Source: a virus (Duplodnaviria > Heunggongvirae > Uroviricota > Caudoviricetes). Taken from it: a stretch of DNA of 7,869 bases. Location of the stretch: IMG/VR virus record IMGVR_UViG_2778261644_000009. One strand, written 5' to 3'. The notes beneath the pieces are model-generated. The model did no database searches. It was not told the DNA's origin and was given only the letters and a program-made list of their open reading frames with translations. The translations under genes were made by a program, and so were the position numbers. Below are positions 1-7,869 of the stretch, piece after piece (position 1 is the first letter of the stretch; each line of letters begins with the position of its first letter).

Positions 1-12
1 AATTAGCTACCA

Positions 13-144
13 CCACAGAATTCTGTTAATCTTAACTTTTAAAGAGATTTGTACCCAAACAAAAGTCTGTTACCCCACCTATACAGAAAACTGTTAGATT
101 CAACCACAGAAAACTGTTAGACACCCCCACAGAATTCTGTTACC
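13..144. repeat. Array of five direct repeats (iterons), each with a 12-bp internal dyad ACAGAAnnCTGT followed by TA; putative initiator-binding sites of a replication origin
   Basis: Dyads at 15-26 (ACAGAATTCTGT), 59-70 (ACAAAAGTCTGT, degenerate), 83-94 and 106-117 (ACAGAAAACTGT), 129-140 (ACAGAATTCTGT); each preceded by a C-rich stretch; centres 20.5, 64.5, 88.5, 111.5, 134.5, i.e. 22-24 bp or multiples (about two helical turns). Window starts inside or just before the array, so it may extend upstream. Confidence 0.6.
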
Positions 145-148
145 TATT

Positions 149-206
149 AGATCATTTATTAAATTACTTATTAAATTATAATATTATATATTTATTTATA
201 TGATCT
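149..206. promoter_or_regulatory. AT-rich block, putative DNA-unwinding element of the origin
   Basis: About 46 bp of almost pure A/T (155-200) immediately after the iterons, flanked by inverted 6-mers AGATCA (149-154) and TGATCT (201-206), each with a GATC site; tandem TTATTAAATTA at 156-166 and 168-178. Confidence 0.4.
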
Positions 207-375
207 TTTGCCTTCCGGCGTTAAGCTTCACTCCCTGGCAAGCAGCCTTACTCCGCTACCTTTGGGCTTCGTGGCTGGCCCGTTCCGCTCACACCGAAAG
301 CAAAGCGTTACTTTCTTCGTGTAACTATCGTTGGCGGTAACGCCCACGAAGAAATACTATTGCGCTGTGCGCAGA
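207..375. other. GC-rich hairpin-dense island; candidate structured RNA or single-strand initiation/packaging signal, function unknown
   Basis: GC-rich in an AT-rich context, no ORF. Nested stem-loop: TTTCTTCGTG (312-321) pairs with CACGAAGAAA (345-354), enclosing GGCG-GTAA-CGCC (333-344, GNRA-type tetraloop). CTTCGTG also at 267-273. Small hairpin TGCGC-tgt-GCGCA at 361-373. Confidence 0.3.
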
Positions 376-437
376 AGAGTAATCACCTAACCAATCATAC
401 TGATTGCTTACGTGTTAACTCTATCTCTCTACCTCTT

Positions 438-595
438 AATTCCACTTCCTACATTCTGTAGTCGTGTAATTACTCGAAGAGAGAGCGGCTAAAGCTCAAT
501 TACACTCTGCTTTCCTCGTGTAATTTCACTAAGCCTCAATACAATTCCACTTCCTACATTTAATAACTCTCGTTATTCTCTGTAGTTGTGTAATT
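438..595. repeat. Two copies of a composite direct repeat: AATTCCACTTCCTACATT followed by CTGTAGTYGTGTAATT, the second copy with a 24-bp insertion
   Basis: Perfect 18-mer at 438-455 and 543-560. CTGTAGTCGTGTAATT at 456-471 and CTGTAGTTGTGTAATT at 580-595. YGTGTAAYT also at 318-326 and 517-525, and inverted (AATTACAC) at 498-505, giving mutually exclusive pairings 464-471/498-505 or 498-505/518-525. Confidence 0.6.
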
Positions 596-1107
596 GTTTT
601 CGGTGGAAAAGCCAGAGGCGACACCGAAAGAGAATTCTGATCTTATTAATCTTATCTATCTTAGTTAATCTTCTTACTTATCTTACTTACTTTATCTACT
701 TTATTATTAATAATAGCTTTATAAGCTCTCTGACGCAAGAAACAGAGTTCAGGAAGGGAATCACCTTAGAAAAGTGTTCTTTGCGTCATAATGTGTTTTA
801 TGAAGGATTCAGAGGTGTTTCATAACAGGAGTGTATAGAGGATACTTTAATTAATTAAATATAAGGGGTCTAAATGCTTCTCTAACAGCATTAAGCAGGG
901 TAGGGAATGGAAACGCATTGCCTACATATATAATCTCACTACAGGGCTTTACAGAGCGTTTTATAAAGTGACTCTCTATCTTATATCTACCATTACCTTT
1001 TCATATACCTAACAAATACAAAATAAGCCCCTTAAATAAGCCTCTGGCGAGCTAAACAACCTCTACATAAGAGAATGTATTGCTTTTATCAAAACTTCGT
1101 TAGAACG

Positions 1108-1127
1108 CGTTTTAGAGCGTTTTAGAC
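1108..1127. repeat. Perfect tandem duplication GCGTTTTAGA x2 (candidate operator) upstream of the early promoter
   Basis: GCGTTTTAGA at 1108-1117 and 1118-1127; related GCGTTTTATA at 956-965; adjacent 8-bp palindrome AACGCGTT at 1104-1111; about 90 bp upstream of the -35 at 1219. Confidence 0.5.
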
Positions 1128-1218
1128 AATAATGAAGAATAGCACCACACAGGAGAGCACGAATTGCTAAGAAAAAATGTAAGTGCATGAAAAAGATCAG
1201 ATTTTTTATGAAAAGGTA

Positions 1219-1247
1219 TTGACAAATGTTTCTTTATATGTAATAAT
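1219..1247 (+). promoter_or_regulatory. Sigma70-type promoter for the early operon
   Basis: TTGACA (1219-1224), 17-bp spacer, AATAAT (1242-1247); A/T-rich upstream; first gene starts at 1358 with SD AAGGAG (1346-1351). Confidence 0.5.
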
Positions 1248-1357
1248 AGGTATTAGAGGGACAGAAAACATTCTTCTCTAAATAATCAAAATCAATGCAC
1301 TTTGAAGCCGTCAGGCTTGCAAGGTGTTTTTTCTTTTAACTGAATAAGGAGTTTTTT

Positions 1358-1546
1358 ATGAAATGGTTTACATCGGAGCACGTCATCGAGGCATTTAAAA
1401 AAGGTGAGCTAACACGCCACCAAGTAGTAATGAACCGTAATATGGCAAGGAGTCGAGGTTATCCAGAGCGAGCAGCTTGCTTCAATGAAGCACTCAAGAT
1501 TATTGATGAACTAAGAAAAAATGAAAAAGAATCTGAAACAGAGTAA
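1358..1546 (+). CDS. Small hypothetical protein (62 aa), possibly regulatory
   Basis: ATG 1358 with SD AAGGAG 6 nt upstream; first gene after the promoter; stop 20 nt before the next SD-led gene. No recognisable motif. Confidence 0.55.
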   Translation: MKWFTSEHVIEAFKKGELTRHQVVMNRNMARSRGYPERAACFNEALKIIDELRKNEKESETE

Positions 1547-4536: not shown

Positions 4537-5565
4537 ATGATTCTAGGTAATGATTACGTTGATTTAGCTCCTCTGTTCTCTGCGCATAGCACTAGAAACT
4601 ATCTGCTTTCTACTCTCGACTTCACTGATCCGGTGGGCGTTAGTTCTCATAAAGTAGCTGTTTCCCAGCTTGTCGAAAGCAACGAATCTCTGTTCAACAA
4701 AGAAACCTCTCGTTTCTCTTCTGAACACAACGTTACTAAGCGAGAACAAGGTAAAGAATGGCTGATCGAGATCCCTTACTTCCTGCGTGAAGATGTGATC
4801 CGTCCTTCTGATGTTCAAGGCAAACGTAAACCTGGCACTGATTTCCAGGAAACACTCACTGATATCTACGCGGAATATGTTGCTAAACACAATGTTGCAT
4901 TCCAGCGTACAAAAGAGAGCGTGTTGGCGGCTTCTTTGTTCTCTGGCAAAACTTACACGCCTAAAACTGATGATGTTCTTATCGAATGGGGCAAGCTGTT
5001 TAACGTATCAGCTATGAAAGCCACTGTGAACGCTTCCAGCACTGACACCACGAAGATTTTTAAAGAATTTGATCAGATTGCTACTGACATTATCGAAAAA
5101 GCACAAAGCCAGGCGGCTGCTGTAGAGCGTATTGTTGTTTTCTGTAAGCCGGAAGCATTCTCTGCAATTCGATTCTCTGCGGGTATGGCAAACGCATTCC
5201 AGTATGTAAGCCCACTGGAAGAAGGGAACGTTGTGTACCAGCGTCGTGACCTGCTACCGGGGGTGACAGCGTTCACTATTCCAGGAACTAACATTGATGT
5301 TATTAAACTGGTAGATCCGCTACACCTTGCACATATGACCGCAGACGCTGTAGCGATTCCGAGGTTTGCTAAGGGGGCAGGTGTTTATGCCAACATCTTC
5401 GGGGCGGCTTCCAGCACCTTTGAACTGATTAATACCGCTCCTGCTGAGGTTTATAGCTATAGCTATGAATCTTCTCGTGGTGATGCTGTTAACGTTGTTA
5501 CAGAGAATAGCCAGATGGTTGTAAACCACGGCGTTGGCTTCTCCGTTCAAATCACTGTGAAATAA
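4537..5565 (+). CDS. Highly expressed 342-aa protein; putative major structural (capsid-like) protein, assignment tentative
   Basis: ATG 4537 after AAAGGA; codon usage visibly different from the AT-rich early genes (CTG, CGT, GGT/GGC, TCT, AAA, GAA, as in highly expressed enterobacterial genes); no signal peptide or nucleotide-binding motif; followed by the strongest terminator in the window. Confidence 0.85.
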   Translation: MILGNDYVDLAPLFSAHSTRNYLLSTLDFTDPVGVSSHKVAVSQLVESNESLFNKETSRFSSEHNVTKREQGKEWLIEIPYFLREDVIRPSDVQGKRKPGTDFQETLTDIYAEYVAKHNVAFQRTKESVLAASLFSGKTYTPKTDDVLIEWGKLFNVSAMKATVNASSTDTTKIFKEFDQIATDIIEKAQSQAAAVERIVVFCKPEAFSAIRFSAGMANAFQYVSPLEEGNVVYQRRDLLPGVTAFTIPGTNIDVIKLVDPLHLAHMTADAVAIPRFAKGAGVYANIFGAASSTFELINTAPAEVYSYSYESSRGDAVNVVTENSQMVVNHGVGFSVQITVK

Positions 5566-5870: not shown

Positions 5871-7703
5871 ATGTTAGAAATTAACACTTCTAAAATTAAG
5901 AACACAGTTACATTTAGTGTAGATAAAGACAGCTTGAAAAAAGCGAAAGACTCTATTACAGGCTTAAAGGAATTCGCCGAAAATATCAAGCCAGCTAAGC
6001 TGAGATTTGATAGTGTCACTAAAGGCTATAAGAAAGCACAAAGTGAAGTAGACAAGATTGCTCAACAGAAAGCTAAAACAGAAAAACAAAATCAAAGAGC
6101 ACAAGCTGCCGCAGCAAGAGCACAGGCAAGGCAACAGCAACAAATAGCAGCACGTAAAGAGAAAGCAGAATTAAAGCTCCTTGATGTATCAAGCTCTATC
6201 AGTGCAATGCACCGTCTCTCTGTAGCTGAACAATACAAAGCTATTGCACAGGCTAGAGAGATAGCAAAACAATATGAGCAAGGGGCTATCTCGCTTGCAC
6301 GTATGAATAGCCAAATGAAACGCCTACAACAGCAACAACGTAAGATTAATGGCAACAGAAAAGCTCAATTAGCCCCCGTTAAGGGAGGAGGATCAGGGAA
6401 TGCCGCCACTATGGGCGCTCTGTTATTTGGAGGCGCTACAGCGGCTGCTGGCGTGATGGCTGTTAGTAAAACCTCTGAATTTATGGCTAATAGCTTTGCT
6501 AACGCAGATACCCAAGGGGAGCTAATTCAACGTGCCAAGCTGGGCGGTGTAGACGTTAACCAGATGTATAATATTACAGAATGGGCGTATAGAAACGGCG
6601 TTGACTCTATGATGGGTGATCAAGGGGCTAGGAAATACCTGGATCAGATGAAAGATGTTAGGGAACGTGCCGCAAAATCCTACAGTGAAGCTGAATTGGT
6701 GAAAGATAAGAAAACCGGAAAATCTGAATGGAAAGGCGGTGATAACGCTATTAATGAACTTCTAAACATCGGTGTTATTAACAAAAGCGACCTTAAAAAA
6801 TTTGCTGATAATCCGGCTGGATTAATTTCTAAGGCTGTTAATGGAATGATGAAAAAAGGGTTTTCAGACTCCCAAATTGGACAACGTTTAGAAGACCTGG
6901 GCGATGATTTGATGCTTACATCAAAATATTGGCAACGTTCCGTTAAAGATGTACAAGAAAGTATTAATCAGCAAAAAGCCTCTGGAAAATGGCTAACAGA
7001 AACACAGCAAGACTCTATTGTTAAATTCAGAGAACTAAACAGACAGCTTTCACAGCTTTCTGATGCAAGACAAGTAGCATTCGTAGACGGCTTTATGAAA
7101 TCTCTCGATCCAAAAGTAACGGAAGAGTTTATGAAAAACCTTTCTAATCTCACTCCGTATTTTACGAAACTAGGGGAAGCTGTAGGAAGTCTCTTTGAGG
7201 CTATTATGAAGCTTGTAAACTGGTTTAATCGTAATGATGATAAGACAGATGCTATTCAGAAAAATTTAGGTGATGCACCGCCATTAAGCAATGAAGGGAT
7301 GAAACAGCATCTTTCTAATCTCGTTCCTGACCAATATAAAGGCGCTGGAACTGCAACAACTGCACCTGATAATAGTCATTCTCTCTTTAATACAATTAAG
7401 GGATTGCTTTTTGATGATAATTCTTCTGTGTCAGATGTAAAAATGTCAGTTAGTGAAGCACCGATAACCAATCTCAAACAGGGTGCTTTAAATAATCTTG
7501 CAATGACAACTCCGGCTTATAATTTATCTCCTGTGTTTAATCTGAATCCAACGTTTGAAGTGGTAACAGAGGTTCCTCTTACTATTAATTCTGACACATC
7601 AAGATTAAGCGATTATGTGGATTTTACAGCGAGAGCAAGTCGGGATAGCTTCTTGAAATCATTAACATTAACCAGCTTATCAGGACAATCCAACGGCGGG
7701 TAA
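5871..7703 (+). CDS. Large coiled-coil protein (610 aa) with internal Gly/Ala-rich hydrophobic segment; tape-measure-like or ejection/pilot-type structural protein (tentative)
   Basis: ATG 5871 after AAGGGGA; N-terminal 160 aa rich in K/Q/A/R heptad-like sequence (KAKTEKQNQRAQAAAARAQARQQQQIAARKEKAELK); then GGGSGNAATMGALLFGGATAAAGVMAV; no N-terminal signal peptide, no HUH or Walker motifs. Confidence 0.85.
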   Translation: MLEINTSKIKNTVTFSVDKDSLKKAKDSITGLKEFAENIKPAKLRFDSVTKGYKKAQSEVDKIAQQKAKTEKQNQRAQAAAARAQARQQQQIAARKEKAELKLLDVSSSISAMHRLSVAEQYKAIAQAREIAKQYEQGAISLARMNSQMKRLQQQQRKINGNRKAQLAPVKGGGSGNAATMGALLFGGATAAAGVMAVSKTSEFMANSFANADTQGELIQRAKLGGVDVNQMYNITEWAYRNGVDSMMGDQGARKYLDQMKDVRERAAKSYSEAELVKDKKTGKSEWKGGDNAINELLNIGVINKSDLKKFADNPAGLISKAVNGMMKKGFSDSQIGQRLEDLGDDLMLTSKYWQRSVKDVQESINQQKASGKWLTETQQDSIVKFRELNRQLSQLSDARQVAFVDGFMKSLDPKVTEEFMKNLSNLTPYFTKLGEAVGSLFEAIMKLVNWFNRNDDKTDAIQKNLGDAPPLSNEGMKQHLSNLVPDQYKGAGTATTAPDNSHSLFNTIKGLLFDDNSSVSDVKMSVSEAPITNLKQGALNNLAMTTPAYNLSPVFNLNPTFEVVTEVPLTINSDTSRLSDYVDFTARASRDSFLKSLTLTSLSGQSNGG

Positions 7704-7737: not shown

Positions 7738-7869
<132 letters not shown>

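Follow-up and report, generated by a model that had tools for sequence, protein, structure and literature searches.

In oriV of plasmid RSF1010, the iterons are followed by an AT-rich segment and then by two paralogous hairpins, ssiA and ssiB. The par locus of pSC101 is built of related segments in direct and inverted orientation, two direct copies flanking an inverted one, and in the CI RNA of satellite P4 (seqA/seqB/seqC) and the c4 RNA of P1/P7, direct copies with a complementary copy between them form mutually exclusive pairings. The single-strand initiation (ssi) signal of ColE1-type plasmids is an 82-nt stem-loop beside the origin which binds DnaB/DnaG (PMC5935869), and pSC101 par is a specific gyrase-binding site, cis-acting, gene-free and located beside an iteron origin (PMC4041236). 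Here we analyse a stretch of 7,869 nucleotides (IMG/VR record IMGVR_UViG_2778261644_000009, hereafter “the window”), in which a first-pass annotation had described region 438-640 as a dense array of short repeats and alternative hairpins, of a kind that usually serves as a multi-site platform for proteins. We find that the motifs are what four neighbouring stem-loops (438-629) show at the level of sequence, and that these stem-loops belong to a conserved module beside the iteron origin of a chromosomal island. Hairpins next to origins are known from ssi signals and primosome assembly sites (PAS), from ssiA/B of RSF1010 and from par of pSC101; what is new is the size of this module and its lack of a sequence relative in the collections searched.

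Like ssi signals, phiX174-type PAS and G4-type G-sites, the module consists of stem-loops next to an origin which would act as folded single-stranded DNA, and like ssi-type signals it is independent of the iteron specificity of the initiator (Rep). It differs from such signals in being 3-6 times longer, in having at least 8 helices and invariant unpaired stretches, and in showing neither sequence similarity to any plasmid in the collection searched nor a recognisable primase on the island. Whereas the paralogous hairpins of RSF1010 are inverted and lie on opposite strands, those of the island are direct and on the same strand. As in pSC101 par, a gene-free locus beside an iteron origin contains direct and inverted segments; however, there is no sequence similarity to par, the module conserves pairing within segments and not segment sequence, and in relatives the “inverted” segment holds unrelated sequences. 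P4 is a satellite of similar size, and its pattern of copies resembles the one seen at 464-471, 498-505, 518-525 and 588-595, but here the cross-complementarity is found only in the E. coli lineage, no Rfam match was obtained at E <= 1, and no promoter-leader arrangement surrounds the motifs. Iteron and operator arrays likewise place motifs above chance expectation close to an origin; the region differs from these in that its motif is unconserved, is irregularly spaced, shows no co-variation with Rep and makes up hairpin halves.

The repeats are the two sides of adjacent hairpins

The repeats in 438-640 are real and far above chance expectation. As the first-pass annotation had stated, an 18-mer (AATTCCACTTCCTACATT) is present in exactly two perfect copies (438-455 and 543-560; zero expected from shuffled sequences), each directly followed by CTGTAGTYGTGTAATT (456-471 and 580-595) apart from an extra segment in the second unit. 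That segment (561-579, TAATAACTCTCGTTATTCT) is 19 nt long, not 24 as first described. A third copy of CTGTAGTYGTGTAATT with 3 mismatches lies at 510-525, and CTTTCYTCGTGTAA is found twice. The motif YGTGTAAYT occurs four times, on the + strand only (318, 463, 517 and 587), against 0.21 expected, and none of 200 shuffles reached four; the reported count is thus correct, although the copy at 318-326 falls outside the region to which it had been assigned. Spacing between copies is irregular (54, 70 nt). The inverted copy (498-506, AATTACACT; reverse complement AGTGTAATT) has the 8-mer core and agrees with the motif at only 8 of 9 bases.

Each 34-nt unit (the 18-mer plus CTGTAG..AATT) is an imperfect palindrome, AATTcCAC/GTGtAATT and CTACA/TGTAG, a property that had been missed. 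The unit is thus an imperfect hairpin, present twice, with the 18-mer as its 5’ half and CTGTAGTYGTGTAATT as its 3’ half; YGTGTAAYT is the 3’ arm of several stems. The 561-579 segment is itself a hairpin, AATAAC-tctc-GTTATT. The hairpin proposed between TTTCGGTG (598-605) and CACCGAAA (622-629) was confirmed, and the copy of the iteron core (AGAATTCTG) exists, shifted by one position from where it had been placed. The parts of the module and the sequences around it are as follows.

205-436: 5’ domain of the module; hairpin 312-321/345-354 with inner stems, and a TGCGC-tgt-GCGCA hairpin at 361-373
438-471: stem-loop A (unit 1); 18-mer plus CTGTAGTCGTGTAATT, stems AATTcCAC/GTGtAATT and CTACA/TGTAG, loop TTC; folds alone (z = -3.81)
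487-535: stem-loop B; closing helix GGCT (487-490)/AGCC (532-535), apical stem AATTACAC (498-505)/GTGTAATT (518-525)
541-597: stem-loop C (unit 2); ACAATT/AATTGT, CAC/GTG and CTACA/TGTAG, apical AATAAC-tctc-GTTATT (562-577); folds alone (z = -5.46)
598-629: stem-loop D; TTTCGGTG/CACCGAAA around the invariant GCCAGAGG (611-618)
631-639: AGAATTCTG, similar to the iteron core, probably not a Rep site
640-870: E. coli-lineage insertion; CT/AT-rich tract and hairpin 731-744/775-788, separating the module core from the 3’ block
870-965: 3’ conserved block; TTAAGCAGGGTAGGGAAT (891-908), then a small hairpin followed by GTTTTAT (945-964)

The structured non-coding module therefore covers ~0.45 kb (about 205-640), plus the block at about 870-965. 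When region 430-640 was folded and compared with dinucleotide shuffles, z-scores of -3.85 (+ strand) and -4.43 (- strand) were obtained with RNA parameters and of -4.55 with DNA parameters; the DNA fold of 200-640 gave z = -6.05. Stems are almost purely Watson-Crick, and those of the window have zero wobble pairs. A long-range pairing, 292-303 with 594-605, was considered and dropped since it is not kept in relatives.

The assignment of 438-640 as non-coding was borne out. When open reading frames (ORFs) of at least 40 amino acids were screened, the only one in this region was 586-825. Its TTG start is TCG in 44 of 53 relative copies, its frame ends after 34-52 amino acids in 41 of these 53, and window positions 640-870, which hold most of it, are missing in diverged relatives. 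With start, frame and region all unconserved, a protein-coding function for ORF 586-825 was rejected and 438-640 is non-coding.

Pairing is kept while sequence changes

Relatives were obtained in two ways. The islands of an Escherichia sp. (L004) and of Franconibacter (L005) were found through Rep, while scans with conserved-DNA patterns returned 127 stretches in metagenome and IMG/VR contigs, of which 74 are non-redundant. These relatives belong to the same island family, with capsid and tape-measure-like genes downstream.

Stem-loop C is the most conserved element of the family, being invariant at 40 of ~60 positions across 24 diverse sequences. In the same 24 sequences, 96.3% of the cells in stem-loop C and its closure are paired, compared with 23-44% when partners are slid. 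Three pairs have changed on both sides (one CG<->AU exchange and two AU<->UA exchanges, one of them in 7 sequences), and the covariation score was reached in 0 of 500 shuffles. In diverged relatives, GTGTAATT is replaced by GTGCTATT or GTGCAATT and the partner arm matches each time (ACAATT/AATTGT, CCAATA/TATTGG, CCAATT/AATTGG). In relatives the apical hairpin of C is GATAAC/GTTATC; the AATAAC/GTTATT of the window differs from it by the exchange of a G-C for an A-T pair, and the comparison indicates that the 19-nt “insertion” of the window is in fact an ancestral apical hairpin.

Similar behaviour is seen in the other parts of the module. Stem-loop B has six unrelated apical sequences on one shared three-tier architecture, the inverted pair 498-505/518-525 being swapped in relatives for unrelated hairpins at the same place, and its closing helix GGCT/AGCC is the same in 44 of 44 relatives. 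In 14 of 44, a UA<->CG exchange has taken place in the outer helix of the 5’ domain. For stem-loop D, the stem is limited to the E. coli lineage and the sequence TTTCGG...GCCAGAGG is family-wide. Taken together, these comparisons argue that selection preserves base pairing and not motif sequence. As the motif letters change among relatives while the pairing stays, a platform of equivalent protein sites, as first proposed, is unsupported: YGTGTAAYT is not conserved outside the E. coli lineage. The alternative pairing 464-471/498-505 that had been pointed out is equally restricted, since cross-complementarity of the arms of B with units A or C is confined to the E. coli lineage, and in the other types such pairing is impossible. 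We thus conclude with good confidence that the locus is a conserved stem-loop module rather than an array of protein sites.

The two units are an old tandem duplication that has been repeatedly re-shuffled by recombination. A unit-1 homologue is present in some diverged relatives (L046, L063 and L081), hence the age of the duplication. Of 51 E. coli-type copies, 39 carry both units but no apical hairpin and 6 are window-like; another 4 lack stem-loop B and have one unit with its apical hairpin, and the remaining 2 are reduced to one bare unit. Stem-loops A and B are therefore lost in 6 of the 51, which fits redundancy.

The module adjoins the origin of a satellite-like island

The window covers the left and the middle of a ~12-kb integrative chromosomal island of E. 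coli and other Enterobacteriaceae. It matches 742 of 5,426 complete E. coli genomes, with at least 80% of the window covered in 195 of them at ~94-95% identity; positions 200-1000 are found (at least 80%) in 414. In 40 genome records listed, no annotated feature overlies 200-1000. Islands are inserted at three or more sites, among them tRNA-Thr, tRNA-Leu and the inside of srsR, and different tyrosine integrases are located at the far end. The remaining genes are all on the + strand, in the order two small ORFs, initiator, several small ORFs, capsid and tape-measure-like gene, after which RefSeq annotates a “phage baseplate protein”. The features of the origin and the recognised genes are listed below.

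1-143: iteron array of CCCCCACAGAATTCTGTTA type, the second iteron set; the window begins inside the origin region
145-206: AT-rich spacer (23-28% GC) with GATC 13-mer-like elements and TATAAT at 177-182; presumed unwinding element
1785-2438, + strand: lambda-O-like winged-helix initiator (Rep), phrog_270, HTH_36
4537-5565, + strand: lambda gpE-type major capsid protein (Pfam/PHROGs)
5871-7703, + strand: tail tape-measure-like protein (Pfam/PHROGs)

A possible decoration-like gene lies just upstream of the capsid gene. No terminase or portal was recognised by Pfam or PHROGs among the ten largest ORFs of the window, and none is annotated by RefSeq in the full islands. With a major capsid gene and no recognisable terminase or portal, the island resembles a phage satellite. 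Some 3.6 kb of the 12 kb contain no genes; in genomes, ~2.3 kb of nearly gene-free DNA precedes the window on the left and contains an array of ATTACACAG motifs. Searches of the literature by keyword and accession found no description of the island, and a capsid-based search for distant relatives in IMG/VR returned none below 64% identity. The family thus appears to be undescribed and satellite-like.

The origin itself is double. Two unlike iteron arrays adjoin, GGTCACTGTGAACTAGGGGG in seven copies (L002 5780-6005) and then CCCCCACAGAATTCTGTTA in 4-5, each followed by an AT-rich stretch, and beside them Pfam and PHROGs recognise one initiator gene only. The true iterons lie 300-600 nt left of 438-640. 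In every relative, whatever its iteron or Rep type, the order is iterons, AT-rich/GATC spacer, module; the module begins where the spacer ends, its first helix overlapping the last GATC element. There are at least seven iteron types among relatives, judged by eye. In L004, both the iterons and the N-terminus of Rep are different, yet the module shares 90-93% identity with that of the window; between the window and Franconibacter, the module core has 76% DNA identity while Rep has 49% protein identity. The 640-870 insertion is absent from L005 and other diverged relatives, in which the core directly abuts the 870-965-type block. AGAATTCTG is kept in L004 despite its different iteron type, and so does not track Rep specificity; it is absent from diverged relatives. 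Judged by these comparisons, the stem-loop module is conserved and fused to the origin, and appears independent of Rep and iteron specificity.

Strand preference and transcription signals

Folding energy, z-scores, two-strand alifold and three wobble censuses give conflicting answers as to the strand on which the module would be folded. A strand-symmetric helix finder returned 13 G.T against 5 A.C pair columns, pointing to the + strand, while an unbiased census of single-mismatch hairpins returned 12 G.T against 20 A.C and hence no + bias. In 9 of 10 relatives it is the - strand that has the lower shuffle z-score (mean -4.16 vs -2.97), which points to that strand. Watson-Crick stems, folding of both strands and no consistent wobble bias are what a hairpin constraint acting at the level of DNA predicts.

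Promoter-like and terminator-like sites are present on both strands and are unconserved across types; among the relatives examined, no conserved promoter was found at either border of the module. In the window, a perfect TATAAT is located at 177-182. The - strand has a perfect TATAAT in ~20 relatives, at a distance of 160-200 nt to the right of stem-loop C, and it also has a terminator-like TGCGC hairpin. In some relatives a hairpin loop is inverted (CGTGAAACG vs CGTTTCACG).

A side observation was made at the right border of the module. In L038 (8150-8222), and likewise in ~20 relatives, a + strand promoter of TTGATC-17-TATGAT type faces a - strand promoter with perfect TATAAT. Such face-to-face promoters may form a transcriptional-interference switch; the equivalent was not found in the window.

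A putative accessory of the origin and its alternatives

What could such a module do? The explanation that we tentatively favour, at less than even odds, is that the module is a cis-acting accessory of the origin which folds as a single strand and provides an entry or priming site. Rep would melt the AT-rich spacer, upon which the neighbouring single strand would fold into stem-loops, and these would serve as an entry or priming site for replication proteins common to all islands, i.e. a helicase or primase of the host or helper. The near-invariant stem-loop C and the flanking TTTCGG..GCCAGAGG would be the recognition element, with the duplicated stem-loop A and the variable stem-loop B dispensable or redundant. 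As in ssi signals, conserved stem-loops of one strand are directly adjacent to the origin. Several observations weigh against this proposal. At ~450 nt plus the 3’ block, the module is large compared with the 60-150 nt of known single-strand initiation signals, and multi-branch elements and long invariant unpaired stretches are more RNA-like. One-sided changes in stem-loop C are G.T in 4-6 cases and A.C in 1, which points to the + strand. A hairpin and T-tract at the 3’ border, followed in many relatives by a strong promoter, suggest that the module may be transcribed on the + strand. When window 1-1360 and the L038 module were used as blastn queries (word size 11) against 72,556 plasmids and 50,697 phages, the module showed no similarity to any plasmid or phage origin region, and among island proteins recognised by Pfam and PHROGs there is no primase or helicase-loader gene.

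Some of these observations would be explained by a large structured non-coding RNA gene (~0.3-0.75 kb) on either strand, acting in trans or on the operon leader, a close rival that we nevertheless consider somewhat unlikely. On the + strand, it would run from the AT-rich spacer to the hairpin/T-tracts before the first operon promoter; on the - strand, it would start from the promoter facing that operon promoter. It could control replication or provide the island with an RNA-based immunity. Compensatory changes that conserve secondary structure are as expected of an RNA, and so are variable peripheral hairpins on an invariant core, a three-way-junction-like element and the long invariant unpaired stretches. 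The G.U-compatible excess on the + strand, in the one-sided changes of C as in the pair columns, the 3’-border hairpin with GTTTTA followed by a promoter, the TATAAT at 177-182 and the ~3.6 kb of island without genes fit as well, and so do, for the - strand, the TATAAT boxes of ~20 relatives, the TGCGC hairpin and the lower z-scores. However, these strand signals contradict each other, window stems have no wobble pairs, the inverted hairpin loop is not expected of an RNA, no promoter is conserved across types, and there is overlap between the first helix and the final GATC element of the spacer. Rfam, searched with the window at E <= 1 and with 12 relatives at the gathering score, returned only tRNAs and chance matches. 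That the module encodes a new large structured RNA, not in Rfam 15, which governs island replication or a switch between silent and induced states is, in our estimate, about a one-in-three proposition at best. Double-stranded DNA could also be the functional form, the module being a multi-site platform that binds a regulator, serves partition or gyrase in the manner of pSC101 par, or provides a recombinase with accessory sites, with the inverted repeats as dimer sites. In E. coli-type islands, the 1.75 kb left of the origin carry ATTACAC at a mean of 5.2 copies on the + strand and 0.03 on the - strand, and the 438-640 region has ~2.7 copies of GTGTAAT, the expectation being ~0.1 per strand; CTTTCYTCGTGTAA is repeated; the island encodes small DNA-binder-like products (a ribbon-helix-helix protein, by eye, at 1566-1733 and the HTH_36 protein at 1785-2438); direct repeats flanking an inverted copy beside an iteron origin recall pSC101 par; and symmetric changes in half-sites could mimic covariation. 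Against this, conservation of the motif does not extend beyond the E. coli lineage, an ATTACAC array is missing from the other types, the arms of B and C differ within one island in diverged types, and neither stems of 5-9 bp on 3-nt loops nor the interruption of the unit 2 dyad by a hairpin suits dimer sites. The irregular motif spacing, the lack of similarity to plasmid par regions and the absence of co-variation with Rep (L004 keeps the motifs, including AGAATTCTG) also speak against such a platform, which we regard as improbable.

Two further readings are less probable still. The invariant core, stem-loop C with TTTCGG..GCCAGAGG, might be a pac or cos signal for the terminase of a helper phage: an island with no recognised terminase or portal would need a helper-specific signal, and the core stays the same in islands with differing replication and integration modules. 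But no similar sequence was found in the 50,697 phage records, even at E <= 1, matches to the patterns in IMG/VR are the islands themselves, the loci recovered as whole contigs are all integrated forms without ends at the site, and a pac or cos site needs neither four conserved hairpins nor a fixed position at the origin, which makes packaging very unlikely. Least probable of all is that the hairpins have no function, local duplications and inversions having left them as neutral relics of an island in decay. Variants are indeed common, with 39 of the 51 E. coli copies lacking the apical hairpin and 6 lacking unit 1 and B; however, this non-coding DNA is better conserved across genera than the neighbouring proteins, and the invariant positions and compensatory changes of stem-loop C also speak against it.

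Several narrower candidates were tried and rejected. Mimicry of a helper phage or plasmid found no match for the module region by blastn against phages and plasmids. An ATTACAC array co-varying with the stem arm would appear as ATTGCAC in GTGCAAT-type islands, but about one copy of ATTGCAC is found in every type. Repeats of a type III toxin-antitoxin system and a mini-CRISPR array were dismissed as the units are non-tandem and 105 nt apart, with no adjoining toxin or cas gene. Integrase arm sites would be ~2.7-3 kb from the tRNA junctions (L002, L003), and integrases differ among islands with the same module. For a resolvase res site, no resolvase is annotated in E. coli-type islands and the half-sites are unlike in diverged types. 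As a separate observation, the DNA left of the origin (L002 4975-5760) contains 5-7 ATTACAC(A/G)G motifs in one orientation, in E. coli-type islands only; GTGTAAT, the reverse complement, is found across the origin in the 438-640 region, and other types carry neither. Because these islands carry both this array and the GTGTAAT copies, a lineage-specific DNA-binding protein is possible.

The island is present in roughly 8-14% of complete E. coli genomes and in other enterobacterial genera, and its most conserved sequence is a stem-loop module beside the origin, not a gene. The role of this module should hence show what lets these islands replicate or keeps them silent, and on which factor of host or helper they depend. 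If the favoured explanation of a priming or loading site in folded DNA is true, the module would be an unusually large and elaborate example of its kind. If it is instead an RNA, it would represent a new class of large structured RNA in the best-studied bacterium, and the island would be an RNA-governed satellite like P4, by way of an unrelated and much larger RNA. The compensatory changes and natural deletion variants provide a ready experimental design.

Observations in neighbouring sequences

Immediately left of the iterons there is another conserved block of non-coding DNA, TTGTTGCATGG..CGGAGTGAGCAGGGCGACG (L005 6590-6670; also L011, L016 and L038), and includes a hairpin with compensatory and G.T changes (CGACG/CGTCG, GATGAT/ATCGTT). 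Further conserved blocks (AAACAGATGTTTGAACGTTGCCAAAT) are located upstream of it.

Right of the module, TTAGAACGCGTTTTAGAGCGTTTTAGA, composed of three ~10-bp units, is found at 1100-1126 and also at 951-963. It matches T5-like phages, namely Klebsiella phage KPN4 (E = 6e-5) and Escherichia phage TrudiRoth (E = 1e-2), at the edge of a large gene-free region rich in DnaA boxes and repeats, and a related motif, AGAGCGTTTTA, recurs in island relatives. On the basis of these matches, TTAGAACGCGTTTTAGAGCGTTTTAGA may be a signal linked to a helper phage.

Region 1219-1340 contains a strong sigma-70 promoter (TTGACA-17-AATAAT with TG; 11/12 matches) and then a leader of ~75 nt; at its end, immediately ahead of the first gene, an imperfect hairpin and T-run can be made out by eye (about 1296-1335). 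The Franconibacter counterpart is 84% identical, and the leader is a possible attenuator or small RNA. Further right, 1554-2138, comprising gene 1566-1733 and the N-terminal half of the Rep-like gene, is 90-99% identical in DNA to Escherichia phages of ~150 kb (muut, inny, Mt1B1_P17 and BI-EHEC). This identity points to recent exchange with large lytic phages, which are candidate helpers.

At the very ends of the window, positions 7809-7862, which have two long poly-A runs, and 1-6 are unmatched in genome copies, the matches running from 5-7 to 7839-7845; these unmatched ends are probably an assembly or library artefact.

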